DNA of 64,000 nt from an uncultured delta proteobacterium (GTDB taxonomy: Bacteria; Desulfobacterota; Desulfomonilia; UBA1062), in the NCBI GenBank assembly GCA_963785235.1, contig CAWAUM010000003.1, positions 384,001 to 448,000 of the forward strand, in the 5' to 3' direction. The notes below the pieces were generated by a model. It saw only the letters and a program-made list of their open reading frames with translations. It was not told the DNA's origin and made no database searches. Made by a program: the position numbers and the translations under genes. The stretch's first letter is position 1, and every line of letters starts with the position of its first letter. Shown one piece after another: positions 21,411 through 34,174 of this stretch.

Positions 21411-21578
21411 CTCCACCTCATAGAGGGTGGGAAACAGACCGTTTGAAGGACAGGTAATTTTGGGAGTTATGAGAGTGAATGGGCATTCATTTCAGATCCT
21501 AGCGGCACGGCTGATAGATGCCGCACCGCATTGACGATCATTTAAGATGATAGTCGCTCGCGGGCATACAAACCTCCC
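21411..21578 (+). promoter_or_regulatory. Candidate structured 5' leader RNA of the kamA operon
   Basis: Hand-folded: hairpin 21412-21431, then P1 GGGAG-UUAUG/CAUA-CAAAC-CUCCC enclosing three stems (21473-21492, 21502-21524, 21526-21563); no match to a riboswitch consensus I recognise. Confidence 0.45.
21469..21534 (+). CDS. Possible leader peptide MRVNGHSFQILAARLIDAAPH
   Basis: ATG...TGA with GGGAG immediately upstream (better spaced for the in-frame GTG at codon 3); lies inside the structured leader. Confidence 0.25.
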   Translation: MRVNGHSFQILAARLIDAAPH

Positions 21579-21665
21579 CCCCCGGTGTAATCCAATTTCT
21601 TCAGCAATTATTATTCATCATCGAAAAATATCATGCCGATATTTCACCAAAGGAGGAGTTACAAA

Positions 21666-22973
21666 ATGAAGAACAACGGTCCTGCAGTTTCTGTTCCCCA
21701 TGATGATCCAGACCCCTTAGGTACGGAACCCCCCGAGGAGCCCCCATCGATATCACGCTCACTCGTCCAAGACTTGTTGTTCAAAACCGAGCCTGCACAA
21801 AAATTATCCCTTGTGGGCCGCATACCTGTCAGCCAGCATTCACGGTATTTTCTTCACCGCTTCTTCCCAAAGGTTACTGAGGCTGACTGGTCCAACTGGC
21901 ACTGGCAGATCCGCAACAGCATTACCAGCCTTGAACAGATAAAGAGAATCGTCAACCTCACACACGGTGAATACAGCGCTATCATGAGGCACACGTCGGG
22001 CCTGCCCTTAAGGATCACTCCCTATTATGCCAGCCTGATAAATGCCTGGGAACCATCACAGGCCATCAGACGCGCCGTGGTACCTGTCGGTGATGAGTAT
22101 CTATCATCGCCCGGTGAGGCATTAGACCCGCTGGGCGAGGAAAACCAAAGCCCCGTGCAGGGGCTGGTCCATCGCTACCCTGACCGGGCACTGTTCCTTA
22201 CCACAGGCTTCTGCTCAACATACTGCAGGTACTGCACACGTTCACGCATGGTAGGCAACCATGGCAAGTTCAAAGGCAGCATCGCCCAGTGGCAGGAGGC
22301 TATTGCCTATATCGAAAAGACACCCCGGATCCGCGACGTCCTCCTTTCGGGTGGAGATCCACTGACACTGACAGACAGCCACCTGGACTATCTTCTTTCC
22401 AGCATTTCCCGCATACCCCACGTGGAGGTCATCCGCATCGGCACCAAGGTTCCCGTGGTGTTGCCGCAGAGATTAACGGCACGGCTGCTGAAGATCCTGA
22501 AAAAGTACCAGCCCCTGTGGCTGAGCATCCACTTCACCCATCAAGATGAGCTGACACCCGAGACAAGCGCGGCATGCAATCTCCTGGCTGATGCCGGCAT
22601 ACCGCTCGGCAGCCAGACCGTCCTGCTCAAAGGCATCAACGACGATATACCAACTTTAAAGGCTCTCTTCCATGGCCTTATGAAAATCCGTGTACGGCCA
22701 TACTACCTCTATCAGTGTGACCCTATCCTCGGCTCCTCGCATTTCCGGACCACTGTGGATAAAGGCCTTGAAATGATCGAGGGCCTGCGAGGGCATACTT
22801 CAGGTTATGCAGTGCCGCACTATGTAATTGATGCACCAGGTGGCGGCGGCAAAATCCCGCTCCTGCCCGATTACTATCAGGGCCGGCATAAAGATGAGAT
22901 CATCCTGAGAAACTATGAGGGCAGGACGTTTAGATACCCGGACAAACATACCGAGTGTCCTGTGGCACCTTAG
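21666..22973 (+). CDS. kamA: KamA-family radical SAM/PLP aminomutase (lysine 2,3-aminomutase-like)
   Basis: WSNWHWQ, HRYPDR, CSTYCRYC, LSGGDPL, RPYYLYQCD, YVIDAPGGGGK (PLP lysine); AGGAGGAG RBS. Confidence 0.9.
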   Translation: MKNNGPAVSVPHDDPDPLGTEPPEEPPSISRSLVQDLLFKTEPAQKLSLVGRIPVSQHSRYFLHRFFPKVTEADWSNWHWQIRNSITSLEQIKRIVNLTHGEYSAIMRHTSGLPLRITPYYASLINAWEPSQAIRRAVVPVGDEYLSSPGEALDPLGEENQSPVQGLVHRYPDRALFLTTGFCSTYCRYCTRSRMVGNHGKFKGSIAQWQEAIAYIEKTPRIRDVLLSGGDPLTLTDSHLDYLLSSISRIPHVEVIRIGTKVPVVLPQRLTARLLKILKKYQPLWLSIHFTHQDELTPETSAACNLLADAGIPLGSQTVLLKGINDDIPTLKALFHGLMKIRVRPYYLYQCDPILGSSHFRTTVDKGLEMIEGLRGHTSGYAVPHYVIDAPGGGGKIPLLPDYYQGRHKDEIILRNYEGRTFRYPDKHTECPVAP

Positions 22974-22975
22974 AT

Positions 22976-23953
22976 ATGAACATCGGCATCACCTACGACC
23001 TGAGAGACGACTACCTGAGCCAGGGATACAGTTACGAGGAGACCGCCGAGTTCGACCGGATCGACACGATAGACGGGATTGATGAGGCACTTCAGGCTCT
23101 GGGGCACACCACGGACCGTATCGGCAACGTCAAACAGCTCGTTAAAAGACTCGCAGCAGGCCATAGGTGGGACCTGGTGTTCAACATCGCCGAGGGCATG
23201 CACGGCGCTGGAAGAGAGGCGCTGGTGCCTGCTCTTCTGGATGCATATCTTATTCCCTACACATTCTCCGATCCTTTCGTGCTCACGCTCACCCTGCATA
23301 AGGGCCTGACCAAGACCGTCATACGTGCCGCAGGTATTCGCACTGCGGATTTCGCAGTGGTCGAAACGCCAGGTGAAGTCGATTCAATACGCCTTCCCTT
23401 TCCGCTTTTTGTCAAACCCGTAGCAGAAGGTACGGGAAAAGGCATTAATGATTCATCAAAGGTTGACACAACCGAACAACTCTCTGTACTATGTACGCAT
23501 CTGTTGGAAGAGTTCAACCAGCCGGTGCTTGTGGAGACTTACCTGCCCGGCCGTGAATTCACCGCAGGCATCGTAGGAACTGGTCAGGGGGCGCAAGTTA
23601 TAGGCGTTATGGAGGTCCTGTTCAGGAAACACCATGAAGGTGAGAAGATTTACTCTTTTAGCAACAAGTCGAATTACGAAGAGGTCATCGACTATCATAT
23701 CCCCGAGCAGGAGACTGTCCGGGCATGTGCCGATATTGCACTTAAATCGTGGAAGGCCCTTGGGTGCAGGGATGGCGGGAGGGTTGACATCAGGATGGAC
23801 AGACTAGGCCAGCTGAACTTCATTGAGGTAAACCCTTTAGCGGGCCTCAACCCGGCCCATTCGGACCTGCCCATTATATGCAGGCTTCTTAACATCTCAT
23901 ACCAGGATCTCATCGAGGGTATCCTGGCAAGCACAATAAAAAGGCTCTCCTAA
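22976..23953 (+). CDS. D-Ala-D-Ala-ligase-like ATP-grasp enzyme (copy 1)
   Basis: VFNIAEG, IPYT, FVKPVAEGTGKGI, ETYLPGREF, GRVDIR, FIEVNPLAGL. Confidence 0.88.
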   Translation: MNIGITYDLRDDYLSQGYSYEETAEFDRIDTIDGIDEALQALGHTTDRIGNVKQLVKRLAAGHRWDLVFNIAEGMHGAGREALVPALLDAYLIPYTFSDPFVLTLTLHKGLTKTVIRAAGIRTADFAVVETPGEVDSIRLPFPLFVKPVAEGTGKGINDSSKVDTTEQLSVLCTHLLEEFNQPVLVETYLPGREFTAGIVGTGQGAQVIGVMEVLFRKHHEGEKIYSFSNKSNYEEVIDYHIPEQETVRACADIALKSWKALGCRDGGRVDIRMDRLGQLNFIEVNPLAGLNPAHSDLPIICRLLNISYQDLIEGILASTIKRLS

Positions 23954-23963
23954 AAGGGCGTTT

Positions 23964-24953
23964 ATGAGCGAGACCATTCTTATACTCCATCAGCCTGTCC
24001 CAAAAAAAGCAGGACCTGATGACTGGGATGTACTGGACCAGGTAGAAGCAGTGGACATTGAACTGAAAAAGATGGGCTATGATACGCAAATCATACCCTT
24101 TGAGCTCGGGAAAAGAGGTTTCTTATCCGGACTGAAAAACCTTAAGCCCCTTTGTGTATTCAACCTGGTGGAGTGTATCAACGGCGATGGACAGCTCATT
24201 CACCTTGCCTGCTCCTACCTTGACCATCTCAAGATCCCCTATACCGGTGCCGGGGCTGAGGCCATGTTCATCACTTCAAACAAGGTGCTGGCCAAAAGAT
24301 GGATGCAGCTTATGGAAATACCCACTCCGGAGTGGGTCGTGCCGGGCAAACAGATCGAATGTGAGCCCCCCTTCCCTTGCCGGTATATTATTAAGGCCCA
24401 GTGGGAGGAAGCATCCATCGGACTCGATAGTGAATCAGTGGTGGATGTCCGTGACATGGACGAGCTCATGGACCTTCTCCATCAGAAGGCCCTGAAAATC
24501 GGGAAGCCGTGCTTTGCAGAGCGTTATATAGACGGCCGGGAGTTCAACCTTGCACTGCTTGCAGGCAAAGACGGTCCACAAGTTCTTCTGCCGGCCGAGA
24601 TAACCTTTGACTATGCAGAGCATATGCCCAGGATCGTGGACTACAAGGCCAAGTGGATAGAGGGCTCACCTGAATATGAAGGCACGACGCGTGTTCTTGA
24701 CTTTCCACCCGAAGATGCGCCACTGCTCTCAGAGCTCAGGTGCCTTGCGAAGAAGTGTTGGGAAGGCTTTGATCTGAAGGGTTATGCCAGGGTAGATGTC
24801 AGGGTGGACTCCGATAACAAGCCCTGGGTCCTTGAGATAAACGCCAACCCATGCATATCACCCAACGGCGGCTTCATGGCGGCTTCTGAAAAGTCCGGTA
24901 TTCTCTACCACGACATGATAGCCTGCATTGTTCAGGACGCCTTGCGTCAGTAA
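23964..24953 (+). CDS. D-Ala-D-Ala-ligase-like ATP-grasp enzyme (copy 2)
   Basis: VFNLVE, IPYTG, IIKAQWEEASIG, ERYIDGREF, DYKAKW, YARVDVR, LEINANP. Confidence 0.88.
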   Translation: MSETILILHQPVPKKAGPDDWDVLDQVEAVDIELKKMGYDTQIIPFELGKRGFLSGLKNLKPLCVFNLVECINGDGQLIHLACSYLDHLKIPYTGAGAEAMFITSNKVLAKRWMQLMEIPTPEWVVPGKQIECEPPFPCRYIIKAQWEEASIGLDSESVVDVRDMDELMDLLHQKALKIGKPCFAERYIDGREFNLALLAGKDGPQVLLPAEITFDYAEHMPRIVDYKAKWIEGSPEYEGTTRVLDFPPEDAPLLSELRCLAKKCWEGFDLKGYARVDVRVDSDNKPWVLEINANPCISPNGGFMAASEKSGILYHDMIACIVQDALRQ

Positions 24954-24989
24954 TCTAAGGGCATCCGCGCCAAGAAAGCACGCCGGTAC

Positions 24990-25472
24990 ATGAAATATTC
25001 CTTTCGAAATCATGTGATTCCTACGGACATGAAAACCGTGAAAGGTATAGTGGAATCAACAGGGTTCTTCACTGCCGAAGAAATCGAGGTTGCAGTTGAG
25101 CTTGTGGATGCAGGACTCTCAGGTGGGTCAATCAGCGACTACCTCTTTCTCTTCTGTGAAGATGAGAGCGGCAAGGTCCTTGGTTATACCTGTTATGGCC
25201 GCATTCCTTGCACTGTTGGCAGCTTCGACCTCTATTGGATAGCTGTACACAAAGACCACCAGGGCTTAAGCATCGGCAAGAAACTTCTGGTAAAGACCGA
25301 AAAGAAAATAAAAACCATGGGCGGCATGGGCGTGTACATCGAGACCTCTTCCCGAGACCTCTACAAGCCCACCCAGGGATTCTACCTTAATGCCGGCTAC
25401 CACCAAGAGGCCACGCTCAAGGATTATTACTCACCGGGCGACAGCAAGATCATCTATGTGAAGCACCTGTAA
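24990..25472 (+). CDS. GNAT-family N-acetyltransferase
   Basis: LGYTCYG, DLYWIAVHKDHQGLSIGKKLL (acetyl-CoA motif A), FYLNAGY. Confidence 0.88.
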   Translation: MKYSFRNHVIPTDMKTVKGIVESTGFFTAEEIEVAVELVDAGLSGGSISDYLFLFCEDESGKVLGYTCYGRIPCTVGSFDLYWIAVHKDHQGLSIGKKLLVKTEKKIKTMGGMGVYIETSSRDLYKPTQGFYLNAGYHQEATLKDYYSPGDSKIIYVKHL

Positions 25473-25476
25473 TGCA

Positions 25477-27027
25477 TTATTTCTTGTCTGCCGGACCACT
25501 CCCCTCGTCTTTCTTGAGCCATTCGATACGGTTCAGTGCATTGATATAGGCCTTTGCCGAGGCCACCAGCACATCAGGGTGTGCACCGTGTCCGGCAACA
25601 GAGCGATTGATATATTTCAGCAGCACCGTGGCTTCGCCCTGGGCATCCGTGCCTCCGGTAACGGCGTTGACGGTATATTTCATCAGGTCATAGCTGGTGC
25701 CGGTGATCTTCCGGATGGCAGCGAAGGTTGCATCAACAGGTCCGACGCCAAATCCCGCATCCTGGACGATCTCCCCGACAATCTCCATCTGCATGGTCGC
25801 AGTAGGGATGGCAACATTACCACTGACCACATTGAGATAAACAAGCTTAAACTTTTCTTCAATCCTCAATACCTCTTCGTAGAGGACGGTCTCGAGGTCT
25901 TCATCAAATATCTCTTTCTTCACATCCGCCAGTTCCTTGAAGCGGACAAAGACCCTGTTCAGTTCATCATCGCTCAGGTCATACCCAAGCTGCTTGAGAT
26001 GCTTGATAATGGCATGACGTCCGGAATGCTTGCCTAATACCATATGGCTCTCAGGTATTCCCACTGACTGCGGGGTCATGATCTCATAGGTGAGCTTATC
26101 TTTTATCAGGCCGTCCTGGTGAATGCCGGATTCGTGGGCAAAGGCATTGGCTCCCACAATGGCCTTGTTCGGCTGGACACGTACACCGGTTATCTGGGTG
26201 AGCAGCCTGGAGGTTTGGTAGATATTTTCCGTCTTGATCCCAGTATGGAGTCCGAACAGGTCTTTGCGCGTCGTAATGGCCATGACAAGTTCTTCCATGG
26301 CGGCATTACCCGCACGCTCACCGATGCCGTTTATGGTGCATTCAACCTGCCTTGCACCGTTTCGAATGGCTGAAAGTGAATTGGCAACCCCCAGGCCGAG
26401 GTCGTTGTGGCAGTGCACGGAAATGATGGATTGAGAGATGTTCTTCACCTTTTCAAACAGAAGGGCAATCAATGCACCGAATTCCTCCGGCATAGCATAA
26501 CCGACTGTGTCCGGGATGTTTACCGTGGTTGCCCCGCTCTCAATGACCGCCTCCACCATTTCACACAGATAGCCTTTGTCGCTTCGTGTGGCATCCATGG
26601 GAGAAAACTCGACATTCTTCGTATACCCGCAGGCATGTTTAACCGCTTCGCACGCCTCTTTCAAGACCTCATCCCTTGTCTTGCGGAGTTGATACTTGAG
26701 GTGGATATCAGATGAAGAAATGAATGTATGGATACGCGGACGGGCGGCATCTTTAATGGCATCCCAAGCCCGATCGATATCCTTGAGGTTGGCCCTTGCC
26801 AGCCCTGCAATCTGCACCCCCCTTATTTCACGGGCAATCTGTCTGACAGAAACAAAGTCGCCCTCGGATGCCACAGGGAAACCTGCTTCGATTATGTCGA
26901 CCCCGAGTTTTTCGAGCTGGCGGGCCAGAAGGAGCTTTTCATCCAGGTTCATACTGCAGCCGGGAGACTGCTCACCATCCCTGAGTGTAGTGTCGAAGAT
27001 AAATACCTTATTCCGAGAGTCATCCAT
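25477..27027 (-). CDS. leuA: 2-isopropylmalate synthase
   Basis: FDTTLRDGEQSPG, EAGFP, HCHNDLG, GIGERAGN, AHESGIHQDG, GKHSGRH, C-terminal regulatory domain (G.GPVDA). Confidence 0.95.
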   Translation of the reverse strand: MDDSRNKVFIFDTTLRDGEQSPGCSMNLDEKLLLARQLEKLGVDIIEAGFPVASEGDFVSVRQIAREIRGVQIAGLARANLKDIDRAWDAIKDAARPRIHTFISSSDIHLKYQLRKTRDEVLKEACEAVKHACGYTKNVEFSPMDATRSDKGYLCEMVEAVIESGATTVNIPDTVGYAMPEEFGALIALLFEKVKNISQSIISVHCHNDLGLGVANSLSAIRNGARQVECTINGIGERAGNAAMEELVMAITTRKDLFGLHTGIKTENIYQTSRLLTQITGVRVQPNKAIVGANAFAHESGIHQDGLIKDKLTYEIMTPQSVGIPESHMVLGKHSGRHAIIKHLKQLGYDLSDDELNRVFVRFKELADVKKEIFDEDLETVLYEEVLRIEEKFKLVYLNVVSGNVAIPTATMQMEIVGEIVQDAGFGVGPVDATFAAIRKITGTSYDLMKYTVNAVTGGTDAQGEATVLLKYINRSVAGHGAHPDVLVASAKAYINALNRIEWLKKDEGSGPADKK

Positions 27028-31214: not shown

Positions 31215-32522
31215 TCAAAGCTTCCTGGTCAGATATCGGTCCTGATCCATATCCTGCAAATAAACGGCATAATAGTCCTCATCAGGATTATTATACCAGT
31301 TCATGCCCTGATCCCGGCACGCCTTGCAGGCGCCATGCGGTACATGTATGCCTAGGATTCGATAGCCCGTGGATGCAGCCGAGTCGAGCTTGAATGTACC
31401 CGGGCAGGCATCGCAGTAACGAAATACCTCCTGCTGGTTTTCCGTTATGCCGTCCGTGTCATAGAAGATGTTCCTGAACCTTTCTACGAACGGCCTTCTC
31501 TCCGGCCTCAAGCCTTCACGGGCCTGCCACATGGAAAGGATCTGATCGCACAGCCGTTTCGTGTAGTCTGAAATTCTCGGATCCTGCTGTAATTTTTCCC
31601 TGTCGAGGTCCGGTTCCAGCACGTAAGAATAATCCACACCGGCCAGGGCAAGAATAATACCCGTATTCACATAGGGAAGTGCGGCTTCTATGGAGTATCC
31701 GCCTTCCAGAACACAAATGTCGGGTTTGAGAATTTCGTTGAGCCTTGCATATCCCCCGGCAGTGAACGACATATTGGTGATGGGATCGGAATAATGATTA
31801 TCCTGACCTGCAGAGTTGATGATGAGGTCTGGCTTGAATTCATTGATAACCGGCATCACAAGATTTTCCATTGCATGGAGGATGCCCTCATCGCAGGTCT
31901 TAGGCGGCAAAGGGATATTCAGTGTATACCCGCAGGCATTGGGCCCGCCATACTCGGATGGAAACCCGGACCCCGGGTACAATGTTCTGCCGTCTTGGTG
32001 GATAGAGATATACAAAACATTGGGGTCATGCCAATAGATGTCCTGGGTACCGTCTCCATGATGGCAGTCCGTATCAACGATTGCTATCTTTTTAATTCTT
32101 GGGTAATGGCTCCTCACCCATTCCACCATCACGGCCTCGATATTGATGTTACAAAAGCCGCGGGCGCCCTGGACCACCCTCATGGCATGGTGCCCCGGAG
32201 GTCTCACCAGGGCAAAGGCGTTGTCCACTACGCCTTCCAGAACCAGACGGGCTGCCTCAATGCATCCACCTGCCGAGATATTGTGCGACTGAGTAATTCG
32301 TGAACCGACATCGGGGACGCAGAAATGAGCACGGTTGATGTCATGCTCATCTGCAAGACCGGCCTTGAATTCACGGATGCCCTCAATATCCAGTATCCCC
32401 TCTTCCAAGACCTGGTCTTGGGTATAGAGGAGTCTTTCCTTGCGTTCAGGATGGGTGGGTGTAATCTCCCAATCGTATGCAGGAAAAAAAATAAGCCCTG
32501 TCCTTTTTTTTGCCTTGATCAT
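31215..32522 (-). CDS. Histone deacetylase-family amidohydrolase
   Basis: HPER, RPPGHHA, GFC, DTDCHHGDGTQ, SAGQD, LEGGY; TAATG overlap with the upstream gene. Confidence 0.9.
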   Translation of the reverse strand: MIKAKKRTGLIFFPAYDWEITPTHPERKERLLYTQDQVLEEGILDIEGIREFKAGLADEHDINRAHFCVPDVGSRITQSHNISAGGCIEAARLVLEGVVDNAFALVRPPGHHAMRVVQGARGFCNINIEAVMVEWVRSHYPRIKKIAIVDTDCHHGDGTQDIYWHDPNVLYISIHQDGRTLYPGSGFPSEYGGPNACGYTLNIPLPPKTCDEGILHAMENLVMPVINEFKPDLIINSAGQDNHYSDPITNMSFTAGGYARLNEILKPDICVLEGGYSIEAALPYVNTGIILALAGVDYSYVLEPDLDREKLQQDPRISDYTKRLCDQILSMWQAREGLRPERRPFVERFRNIFYDTDGITENQQEVFRYCDACPGTFKLDSAASTGYRILGIHVPHGACKACRDQGMNWYNNPDEDYYAVYLQDMDQDRYLTRKL

Positions 32523-34174
32523 TAAGAGCTCCATTCACGCAGGATGCCGGGCCTTGTCTGTATCTTGACCCTCATGTTCCTTCCCACAGTGGAAAATCCC
32601 CTTATCATGTTGAAACATTGCTCCTCGATGACGCTAAAATCCATATCATCACTAAGCCCCAGAAGGGAAGCATTCGCCCTGATGGCTTCAAATCCAAAGG
32701 CCTTCAGCTCATCGATACTCAGAGTTCGAGCCGCCTCCTTTTCCAGGTTCAGTTCAGGACAGATTATCCTGCACAGCTGGGTATCGGCAAGCAAGGTGAT
32801 TTGAGCCGTTGTACGGGCAAGGGCTGCGCCCAGGGCATTGGCCACCATTGCATGCTCTGGCACCTCACATTCCATATTGAATGCAGCCTGGATATACGGC
32901 TTAAGCAACTGAGCCGGACCTCCGATGAGTATCACCCGGCTCGGCCTGATAATGTCAGGATGGAGCATCTCATAGATAGTATAAACAGGGTGACTGTTCA
33001 CCTCTTCCACAAACTCAAGGGCCGCCTTTTGGATATTATTTACCATAACCGAAAGTATCCTGGAACTGAGCTCCGTGATATCCATACCCAAGGACTCACT
33101 GATGGGCAGAAGAGCTTCTTTGGCCTTTTTAAGGTCTCCGATAGTGTGATTGCCGAGTACAGCCAAAGCATCCATGGGTGTCGGCGCAACACCGCCCATA
33201 CAGGCCGGCAGACCGCTTCTTCCAGGACCAACCCTGAGCTCGCCGGCTTCAGCGCGTACGCACGAATCACCACCGGTGCCCACAGAGATTACCTTGAGTC
33301 CGCGCACCAGTGTCTTGAGGCCGCCAATGTCCACACCTTGCGGTTCCAGAAGAGGGCTGCCATTCAGGAGGATCCCGATGTCCGTCGTCGTACCGCCGAC
33401 ATCCAGCACCAGTGCAGTCCCTTCCTGCTGATTTGTCAGCGCCAAGGCCCCCATCATGCTTGCAGCAGGACCGGACAGAATGGTCTCCACAGGGAGTCTG
33501 CTCGCTGCCGATGAGGCGTAGGTTCCTCCGTCTGCCTTGAGAAAAAACAACGGGGCATCAATCCCCAGCTTAACCATTGCCTTTTGTACGGCTGAAACGA
33601 ATCTTTCCTGCACAGGCATGACCGCTACATTGAGATACGTTGTGTTCAGACGCCTGGGAAAATTCAGACTTCCACTCATAGTATGGCCCTGGCATAGATA
33701 GCGGAAATCATCCTTGATCAAGGACGCTATGAACGATTCATGGGCGGTGTTCCTGACTGAAAATTTTGAGACAACACCAACACCTTCCACATTGGAGTCT
33801 GACATGCACCGTGATGCACGAAGAACCTCTTCTTTATCAATCGACACATATTCACGGCCCCGGTGGTCTATTGCACCACGGACCAGATGGAAGGAATCAG
33901 TCAGAAAATAGTGGCTGGGATCTATACCCGGGCCGGCAGAGATGATCATGCCCGTCTTTGCATATTTCTTCTCCACAATGGCATTTGTGGACAATGTTGT
34001 GGAAAGGACCACCCTCTTGACGCCCTTGAAATCAATGCCGAGGCTGCCCGCCGCCTCCAGGATGGAACCCACAAGATCATCTCCTGTAGGGGTTTTGACC
34101 GTAGAGAAAATCCTTTTTCCTGCCAGGCATACTGCGTCGGTGTGTGTGCCGCCGATATCAATACCTAAAATCAT
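32522..34174 (-). CDS. Hydantoinase A / oxoprolinase-family ATP-dependent protein
   Basis: GIDIGGTHTD, STTLSTN, LSGPAAS, DVGGTTTD, GGDS, ANALGAA. Confidence 0.9.
   Translation of the reverse strand: MILGIDIGGTHTDAVCLAGKRIFSTVKTPTGDDLVGSILEAAGSLGIDFKGVKRVVLSTTLSTNAIVEKKYAKTGMIISAGPGIDPSHYFLTDSFHLVRGAIDHRGREYVSIDKEEVLRASRCMSDSNVEGVGVVSKFSVRNTAHESFIASLIKDDFRYLCQGHTMSGSLNFPRRLNTTYLNVAVMPVQERFVSAVQKAMVKLGIDAPLFFLKADGGTYASSAASRLPVETILSGPAASMMGALALTNQQEGTALVLDVGGTTTDIGILLNGSPLLEPQGVDIGGLKTLVRGLKVISVGTGGDSCVRAEAGELRVGPGRSGLPACMGGVAPTPMDALAVLGNHTIGDLKKAKEALLPISESLGMDITELSSRILSVMVNNIQKAALEFVEEVNSHPVYTIYEMLHPDIIRPSRVILIGGPAQLLKPYIQAAFNMECEVPEHAMVANALGAALARTTAQITLLADTQLCRIICPELNLEKEAARTLSIDELKAFGFEAIRANASLLGLSDDMDFSVIEEQCFNMIRGFSTVGRNMRVKIQTRPGILREWSS

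Follow-up and report, generated by a model that had tools for sequence, protein, structure and literature searches.

In the pyrrolysine pathway (PylB/PylC/PylD), a radical-SAM enzyme rearranges lysine and a Ddl-like ATP-grasp ligase then joins the product to an amine. ATP-grasp ligases together with an acetyltransferase of the GNAT family give an N-acetylated peptide in the Ngg system, which makes the osmolyte N-acetylglutaminylglutamine amide (NAGGN), and in the microviridin system (MdnB, MdnC, MdnD). The AblA/AblB pathway to N-epsilon-acetyl-beta-lysine is cited for methanogens and some bacteria in two papers (PMC3543383, PMC9337991). Here we analysed a stretch of 64,000 nucleotides from an uncultured delta proteobacterium (contig CAWAUM010000003.1, positions 384,001 to 448,000, hereafter the window) that carries a four-gene operon encoding a KamA-type aminomutase, two Ddl-fold ATP-grasp ligases (AG1 and AG2) and a GNAT acetyltransferase. 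With slightly more confidence than doubt, we read it as a self-contained operon for a small, probably cytoplasmic amide derived from beta-lysine, made by KamA, the paired ligases and the GNAT. The four genes are:

kamA, 21666..22973, plus strand: lysine 2,3-aminomutase (radical SAM/pyridoxal phosphate, PLP) with an N-terminal extension of about 55 aa (Pfam, NCBIfam, 2A5H alignment)
AG1, 22976..23953, plus strand: Ddl-fold ATP-grasp ligase, first paralogue (Pfam, NCBIfam, Ddl/VanA alignment)
AG2, 23964..24953, plus strand: Ddl-fold ATP-grasp ligase, second paralogue (Pfam, NCBIfam, Ddl/VanA alignment, structure model)
GNAT acetyltransferase, 24990..25472, plus strand: 160 aa (Pfam; 2R7H orthologue)

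KamA very probably turns L-lysine into beta-lysine. The protein contains the Pfam domains Radical_SAM (43.8 bits) and LAM_C (PF12544, 80.3 bits against a cut-off of 26.7) and thus is of the long form. It passes the NCBIfam subfamily model TIGR00238 (350.6 bits, cut-off 199.2), and its top NCBIfam model is AblA (468.3 bits), where it stays under the equivalog cut-off of 525.4. The equivalog cut-offs for glutamate 2,3-aminomutase (410.1 < 650), arginine 2,3-aminomutase (375.3 < 600) and EpmB (246.5 < 369.3) are likewise not reached. KamA aligns to the lysine 2,3-aminomutase of Clostridium subterminale (PDB 2A5H) with an E value of 1.3e-129 over residues 65-426, and the CxxxCxxC cluster motif reads CSTYCRYC opposite CSMYCRHC of 2A5H. 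In lysine 2,3-aminomutase the epsilon-amine of lysine is held by D293 and D330, which are replaced in glutamate 2,3-aminomutase, and K337 is the PLP-binding lysine. The motifs YQCD and DAPGGGGK of KamA match 2A5H column for column, so that the equivalents of D293, D330 and K337 (numbers counted along this alignment) are all kept. A preliminary description of the window had claimed both lysine-specifying aspartates, and they are indeed found in YLYQCDP and YVIDAPGGGGK of the translation. The basic substrate and the beta-lysine formation proposed there are supported by these equivalents, by the CxxxCxxC motif and by AblA as the best-scoring model. A search of the genome (13 contigs, 93% complete) showed that this kamA is its sole gene of the KamA family. 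The N-terminal extension of approximately 55 residues (21666-21830) is missing from 2A5H and is shared by the operon-linked KamA proteins. It carries an acidic proline motif, TEPPEEPP in the window and MENETLFNEE-EPPG in the Smithella-type clade (L026-L086), and could be a docking segment.

Both ligases contain the Pfam domain Dala_Dala_lig_C (AG1 88.8 bits, AG2 66.2 bits), and every NCBIfam cut-off for Ddl or Van lies far above their scores: AG1 and AG2 reach 140.1 and 114.7 bits with the Ddl model NF002378 (cut-off 243) and 111.1 and 97.1 bits with TIGR01205 (cut-off 245.65). The two share 27% identity, and a protein search of the genome (E <= 0.001) found no relative of either one besides the other. 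An alignment with DdlB and VanA revealed that the R-x-D and E-x-N motifs and the ATP-binding lysines are kept in both proteins, which therefore look active. The loop for the second D-Ala differs, with EVNPLAGLNPAHSD in AG1 and EINANPCISPNGGF in AG2 opposite EVNTAPGMTDHSL in Ddl. The EVNTxPG...SL loop of Ddl, whose EVNTxPG motif was already said to be missing in the preliminary description, is replaced by EVNPLAG...SD in AG1 and by EINANPC...GG in AG2. The AlphaFold model of AG2 has a pLDDT of 90.7 and its top Foldseek matches are all Ddl proteins (TM 0.72-0.76, 19-23% identity), suggesting that AG2 has the three-domain ATP-grasp fold of Ddl. The genome has a true Ddl elsewhere, on another contig (C1) between a phosphoglycerate mutase and a GlpC-like gene (356.7 bits, cut-off 262), in agreement with the earlier claim that the two ligases are distinct from the housekeeping enzyme. 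The proposal that the operon makes a non-canonical cell-wall building block is unlikely, since a Ddl is encoded separately in the genome and neither ligase conserves the loop with which Ddl binds D-Ala. AG2 homologues are plentiful and all of them are annotated as Ddl in public records; look-alikes in the Atlas carry automatic "Ddl family" names only. The public label "D-alanine--D-alanine ligase" is almost certainly wrong for ligases of the AG1/AG2 type.

To compare the locus with its relatives, one genome per species was scanned, and at least 590 stretches encoding a relative of AG2 were found. The best 80 were taken (45-99% identity); these loci are the closest relatives, and the figures derived from them may not hold family-wide. 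One of them (L038) stems from a genome flagged as unpublished; no conclusion depends on it. The loci belong to Desulfobacterota (Syntrophales, Desulfomonilia, Desulfobacterales) and to genomes labelled Planctomycetota, Acidobacteriota, Chloroflexi, Spirochaetota, Krumholzibacteria and Clostridia. Of the 67 loci that have at least 2.5 kb of DNA upstream of AG2, tblastn with the four window proteins showed that 62 carry KamA as well as AG1 there in the same orientation, and that three have neither. GNAT follows downstream in 41 of the 53 loci with at least 3.5 kb of downstream DNA, and all four genes are present in 35 of the 48 loci with both flanks. Recurrence in 62 of 67 related loci makes this arrangement more than chance; the co-occurrence of the gene set in other genomes had been set beforehand as a test of the idea, and these counts answer it in the affirmative.

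An AG2 profile matched (E <= 1e-40) in 104 of 301 sampled genomes of the window's phylum, and in 93 of the 266 high-quality ones among them. The matches are patchy by family, with for instance 10 of 10 genomes in one family and none of eight in another. Six matches were fetched; four of these show the order KamA-AG1-AG2-GNAT, and the two weakest are lone ATP-grasp genes without KamA. The number of 104 is therefore an upper bound for operon carriers. The same gene order persists at only 31-36% identity to AG1 and AG2 of the window (L115, L118, L120). An HMMER search of the complete set of 1.84 billion cluster representatives returned 2151 matches at E <= 1e-30. In the Smithella-type clade, a lysA gene (299.9 bits, cut-off 297.9) lies about 2.5 kb downstream of the operon behind a PhoU_div/PHO4 pair (L045:10574-11839 and 12 further loci); it may supply lysine, or its position may be chance synteny.

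The GNAT domain of the fourth gene scores above the Pfam cut-offs (PF13508, 38 bits against 27; PF00583, 32.8 bits against 20.7). The protein is a clear full-length orthologue of PDB 2R7H (E 5.9e-38), a structure deposited with a putative name only ("Putative D-alanine N-acetyltransferase of GNAT family"), for which no functional study was found in a full-text literature search. Comparison with NCBIfam gave no match to the AblB model TIGR03827 at E <= 0.01 and no SpeG-type match. The acetylation step assumed in the preliminary description thus stands in part: GNAT is present in 41 of the 53 loci and missing from 12, so it is frequent and not obligatory, and it is not a relative of AblB. In Smithella-type loci a 116-aa DMT_6 (DUF486) membrane protein is encoded between AG2 and GNAT (L025:1270-1617, L028, L045, L072, L078, L079), a possible transporter for the product.

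Fusions of AG2 and GNAT are frequent, with a length of about 490-560 aa, and at L064, L070, L061, L088, L119 and L120 both are encoded in one reading frame. In six of the 80 loci (L039, L058, L065, L077, L081, L089; for example L065:7997-10246) the place of GNAT after AG2 is taken by a GNAT-HDAC-GNAT protein of about 750 aa. Its carriers are several Desulfobacterota and other genomes, and the protein search returned many such proteins (for example P0121), one of which is named acetylpolyamine aminohydrolase by one source. This replacement points to acetylation and deacetylation of an amine. The window has an HDAC-family gene of its own (438 aa, without an NCBIfam name), which overlaps a hydantoinase/oxoprolinase-like gene on the minus strand (31215-34174). 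This HDAC-family gene (31215-32531) was considered for the pathway and rejected: it is encoded on the opposite strand at a distance of 6 kb, and over 180 residues it shares only 36% identity with the HDAC domain of the fusions.

The two ligases are also found fused to each other. Among the 150 best cluster representatives, 14 are 637-731 aa long with two matched stretches, and all three candidates checked hold two Ddl_C stretches; in P0221 the N-terminal half is 56% identical to AG1 and the C-terminal half matches AG2. Apparent AG1-AG2 and KamA-AG1 fusions in L027 and L083 were discarded as artefacts, because they are long open frames in another reading frame. Modelling of an AG1+AG2 complex gave ipSAE values of 0.67, 0.80 and 0.80, with 0.00 for the best control; the runs have at least 91% of contacts in common and the partner pLDDT is at least 86. 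The mark used is reached by 116 of 157 solved complexes and by 2 of 215 mismatched pairs. Since solved Ddl homodimers exist, a pass shows likeness to them and not that AG1 binds AG2. The idea of a ligase heterodimer, raised in the preliminary description, thus gains support from natural fusions and from a complex model that passes its controls. The AG1-AG2 and AG2-GNAT fusions and the complex model make it most likely that the ligases work as a pair coupled to the acetyltransferase, and the fusions are independent support for a joint action of AG1, AG2 and GNAT.

The four genes are co-oriented in the list of open reading frames. With the start codons that are backed by homologue alignments and tblastn, the gaps are 2, 10 and 36 nt, the tight packing described before; for AG1, the start at 22976 was chosen over a GTG at 22955 because every homologue begins with MxIGITYDL. 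No plus-strand terminator-like site was found between the four genes, except for a weak consensus match within AG2. Upstream lies a divergent HlyD/ABC/FtsX efflux set (17021-21242) and downstream a convergent leuA (25477-27027), so the four genes form one stand-alone unit, which is located away from mur/dcw genes as stated in the preliminary description. The pump was considered as an exporter of the product and rejected, as its synteny with the operon is limited to the closest relatives.

The region upstream of kamA contains the following features:

21372..21399, plus strand: putative sigma-70-type promoter (-35 TTGCAT at 21372-21377, 16-nt spacer, -10 TAAAAC at 21394-21399)
21400..21665, plus strand: conserved, lineage-specific 5' leader (alignment, nhmmer)
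21475..21534, plus strand: upstream open reading frame 1 (uORF1), 19 codons, GTG start, TGA stop, VNGHSFQILAARLIDAAPH
21547..21669, plus strand: uORF2, 40 codons, its TGA overlapping the kamA ATG (ATGA)

The spacer before kamA is 423 nt long. Its first part is unconserved, and from approximately 21350 onwards it aligns at 74-94% nucleotide identity with relatives whose proteins are 74-98% identical; DNA farther upstream does not align. The leader was found upstream of kamA in 10 of the 80 loci (nhmmer), and a motif scan identified 18 more copies in metagenomes. The promoter is suggested by a CTTGCW and a TAnnnN box at equal spacing in all aligned leaders; the consensus scan was silent here because the -10 box lacks the final T. 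In 12 of 16 leaders laid out, a GTG or ATG is located exactly 19 codons before the stop of uORF1 (L013 and L103 differ by one base), and the remaining four have an open reading frame of 21-24 codons at this place. Single-site codon differences in the uORF1 frame are 64 synonymous and 86 non-synonymous, compared to 24:102 and 43:82 in the other frames; a synonymous excess is thus seen in the uORF1 frame only. uORF1 also holds the sole hairpin with compensatory changes. uORF2 is open in every leader examined, with 33-62 codons (mostly 37-40 from the ATG of a conserved GATGA), and its stop falls between -5 and +3 of the kamA start. Its frame across the invariant block TGCCGATA..AAGGAGGA varies between lineages; therefore this block, which includes the Shine-Dalgarno (SD) sequence, is conserved as RNA and not as peptide. 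What is kept appears to be translation up to the kamA start and not a peptide.

The leader suggests control by a leader peptide and by translational coupling to kamA, not a riboswitch. The window has no match in Rfam 15 at the gathering score, and a snoRNA match due to chance, on the opposite strand, was all that the region 21200-21700 yielded with E values up to 1. The fold of the single sequence is no more stable than that of shuffled sequences (z -0.93). Across 15 leaders RNAalifold backs only one hairpin. In the close clade, a compensatory change is seen in 1 of 42-46 pairs. The riboswitch reading was rejected on these grounds. The stretch after uORF1 is rich in C and poor in G, and one might speculate that it acts as an anti-SD or that Rho enters there. 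In the Smithella-type clade the leader is short, carries a single hairpin ahead of the SD and lacks a conserved uORF, which shows that the uORF device is lineage-specific. Loci of that clade (L026-L086) carry a near-consensus TGTTGACA promoter (TTGACA) about 100 nt upstream of kamA, and their hairpin, GGAAG...CTTCC, lies directly before the SD. New for the lineage of the window is thus a conserved leader of approximately 290 nt with two small reading frames, the second of which ends on the kamA start.

Together, these data suggest the following course for the favoured pathway. KamA would convert L-lysine to beta-lysine. In support, no other user of beta-lysine was found in the genome when EpmA over the cut-off and AblB were looked for. 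A search for D-lysine 5,6-aminomutase (KamD) gave no match in the genome; control genomes were equally silent, so this result carries no weight. AG1 and AG2, presumably old paralogues derived from Ddl, would act as a physically associated pair, in which each ligase uses ATP to turn a carboxylate into an acyl phosphate that is then joined to an amine. The pair would form one amide bond or two, with beta-lysine among the units that are joined. AG2 is probably the core ligase and would form the amide that involves beta-lysine, because it accompanies KamA even in loci without AG1 and because it is the fusion partner of GNAT; AG1, as its partner, would add or prepare a second unit. GNAT would acetylate a free amine of the substrate or product of AG2, and in some lineages the fused deacetylase would reverse this acetylation. 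The most likely product is a small molecule of the cytoplasm: a substance similar to a compatible solute, or a polyamine-like cation with a charge tuned by acetylation. In the lineage of the window, the leader with its two small translated frames would set expression, the second frame being coupled to the kamA start.

Several observations weigh against this reading. No osmotic-stress genes flank the operon in the window, and many carriers come from samples labelled freshwater, peat or digester, which is not suggestive of a salt osmolyte. GNAT is missing from 12 of the 53 loci with enough downstream DNA, and KamA occurs without AG1 in two of the 67 loci (L084 and L091, both labelled spirochaete). 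The genome encodes NspC and SpeA for ordinary polyamines. The AG1+AG2 complex model may echo only the solved Ddl homodimers. The use of beta-lysine by AG1 and AG2 is something that we infer. As a whole, the first interpretation of the operon stood with regard to the basic substrate, the non-Ddl ligases, the co-occurrence of the genes, the possible heterodimer and the lack of a published product; its option of a cell-wall building block is unlikely.

A bolder version of the favoured reading is that the product belongs to an undescribed class, a beta-lysine isopeptide or oligopeptide made by heterodimeric Ddl-derived ligases without a ribosome or a non-ribosomal peptide synthetase. Acetylation, joined in some lineages by deacetylation, would switch the charge of its amines, it would be a widespread compound of the cytoplasm in anaerobic bacteria, and here it would be gated by the leader. 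We put this forward tentatively, with more doubt than confidence.

Among the alternatives, a polycation deserves attention first, although we regard it as unlikely. In this reading, beta-lysine would be coupled to a polyamine or diamine, or the product would be an oligo-beta-lysine; its charge would be regulated by GNAT, together with the fused HDAC-type deacetylase in those loci that have one. A small GNAT and a domain of the HDAC/acetylpolyamine-amidohydrolase type are the kinds of enzymes that acetylate and deacetylate polyamines, and control via upstream reading frames is common in polyamine genes. The GNAT-HDAC-GNAT proteins after AG2 in six of 80 loci fit this picture, as does the name acetylpolyamine aminohydrolase given to one of them, whereas the missing SpeG-type match of the operon GNAT does not. 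Since the genome has its own NspC and SpeA, such a conjugate would be an addition to the ordinary polyamines; their replacement by the operon product was rejected. One open frame of 1060 aa (contig C10:12795-15830) holds both the NspC match (416.8 bits) and the SpeA match (747.1 bits); it may encode a carboxy(nor)spermidine decarboxylase fused to an arginine decarboxylase.

It is improbable that the operon modifies a macromolecule and that its ATP-grasp enzymes attach beta-lysine to EF-P (where they would replace EpmA), some other protein or a precursor of peptidoglycan. Some ATP-grasp enzymes, for example RimK and LysX, do act on proteins. In addition, EF-P of this genome has the loop lysine (PGKGGAF), yet no EpmA scores over the cut-off; the best match (235.6 < 286.9) is a 537-aa frame with the size of LysRS. 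The only KamA-family gene of the genome sits in the operon. Codons for Pro-Pro in uORF2 of eight of the 16 leaders could sense EF-P activity, but they are unconserved and lie in the C-rich stretch. Against a role in EF-P modification, 29 of 50 operon-bearing genomes encode a separate EpmA over the NCBIfam cut-off, and according to our reading of two tables, 15 of these 29 have a second, short KamA-family (EpmB-like) gene within about 2 kb of EpmA. The canonical EF-P system thus coexists with the operon in the same genomes, which argues against EF-P modification as its function. Moreover, the operon KamA is of the long lysine 2,3-aminomutase type with LAM_C and scores well below the EpmB cut-off (246.5 against 369.3 bits), the closed three-domain Ddl fold predicted for the ligases would act on small substrates, and the separate true Ddl of the genome speaks against a peptidoglycan role. 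EpmA adjoins the short EpmB-like gene in many Syntrophales-type relatives (G043:C50:7364-9995 and 14 further genomes), and the window's own clade (G001-G007) has no EpmA over the cut-off.

We give very little credence to a plain AblA/AblB-like pathway in which the two ligases are unrelated passengers. AblA is the top NCBIfam model of KamA (468.3 bits) and a GNAT is encoded in the same operon; however, this score is under the cut-off of 525.4, the GNAT is not AblB, and no AblB match exists in the whole genome as far as its 93% completeness allows. The ligases are located between KamA and GNAT in 62 of 67 loci, and AG2 and GNAT are fused in many organisms. Within the set, GNAT is the gene that is most often missing, and it is the ligases that constantly accompany KamA. 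A system of the type that makes ribosomally synthesised and post-translationally modified peptides, in which small leader-encoded peptides are scaffolds or substrates modified by the ATP-grasp enzymes and GNAT as in microviridin, is hardly credible: the microviridin MdnA-D set resembles two ATP-grasp ligases, a GNAT and small reading frames, and the C-terminus of uORF1 is semi-conserved, but the uORFs are confined to this lineage (the Smithella-type leader is short and has no conserved uORF), the uORF2 frame shifts between lineages, the ligases are of the Ddl type and not the graspetide type, and no gene for a graspetide-type precursor peptide conserved with the ligases was found among the leaders compared.

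The preferred pathway to a small beta-lysine-derived amide thus combines four enzymes from well-known families, for which we found no described product in this combination. That no product had been characterised was already stated in the preliminary description, and the full-text literature search agrees with it. It yielded no paper in which an aminomutase and ATP-grasp ligases are connected in such an operon; the enzyme-name phrase matched poorly and subscription journals were outside its scope. The amidoligase survey by Iyer et al. may bear on the novelty of the ligase operon. The matching passages of PMC3543383, PMC9337991, PMC12419801, PMC4045070 and PMC4001038 hold nothing bearing on the ligases. 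The combination is common and occurs in hundreds of bacteria, most of them anaerobes: at least 590 species representatives carry an AG2 relative, 2151 cluster representatives match, and about one third of the sampled genomes of the phylum have an AG2 match. Knowing the product would correct thousands of annotations, and the physiology of syntrophs, sulfate reducers, planctomycetes and others would gain a beta-amino-acid metabolite. It would also provide a new pair of amide-forming ligases for biocatalysis.

Compared with the described systems, the operon shares with AblA/AblB a long-type lysine 2,3-aminomutase and a GNAT in one operon, with beta-lysine as an intermediate. It differs in the two ATP-grasp ligases in between, in the 160-aa GNAT from outside the AblB family and in a KamA that scores under the AblA cut-off. 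Likeness to Ddl and VanA (PDB 1IOW, 2DLN, 8EVY, 3SE7) is found in the fold of AG2 (TM 0.72-0.76), in the ATP-binding and Mg/catalytic motifs and in the predicted dimer, whereas the identity of AG2 is only 19-23%, both ligases score below the cut-offs, the loop is changed, two paralogues stand in place of a homodimer and the genes are linked to kamA and not to mur genes. Ngg and the microviridin enzymes also combine ATP-grasp ligases with a GNAT, and in Ngg the two are fused as in AG2-GNAT, but they belong to other ATP-grasp clades, lack an aminomutase and use other substrates. EpmA/EpmB has in common with the operon that a KamA-family enzyme makes beta-lysine, which is then joined to an amine; there, EpmB is of the short type and a paralogue of LysRS serves as the ligase, and 29 of 50 carriers have that system in addition to the operon. 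The pyrrolysine pathway follows a similar logic, from a radical-SAM rearrangement of lysine to a Ddl-like ligase. PylB, unlike KamA, is a carbon-skeleton mutase and not a PLP aminomutase, the operon has no PylD, tRNA or synthetase, and PylC is not among the PDB sequence matches of AG1 and AG2 at E <= 1e-5. By analogy, the chemistry proposed for AG1 and AG2 would resemble that of PylC or the beta-lysyl-lysine link of EF-P, carried out on a free small molecule.

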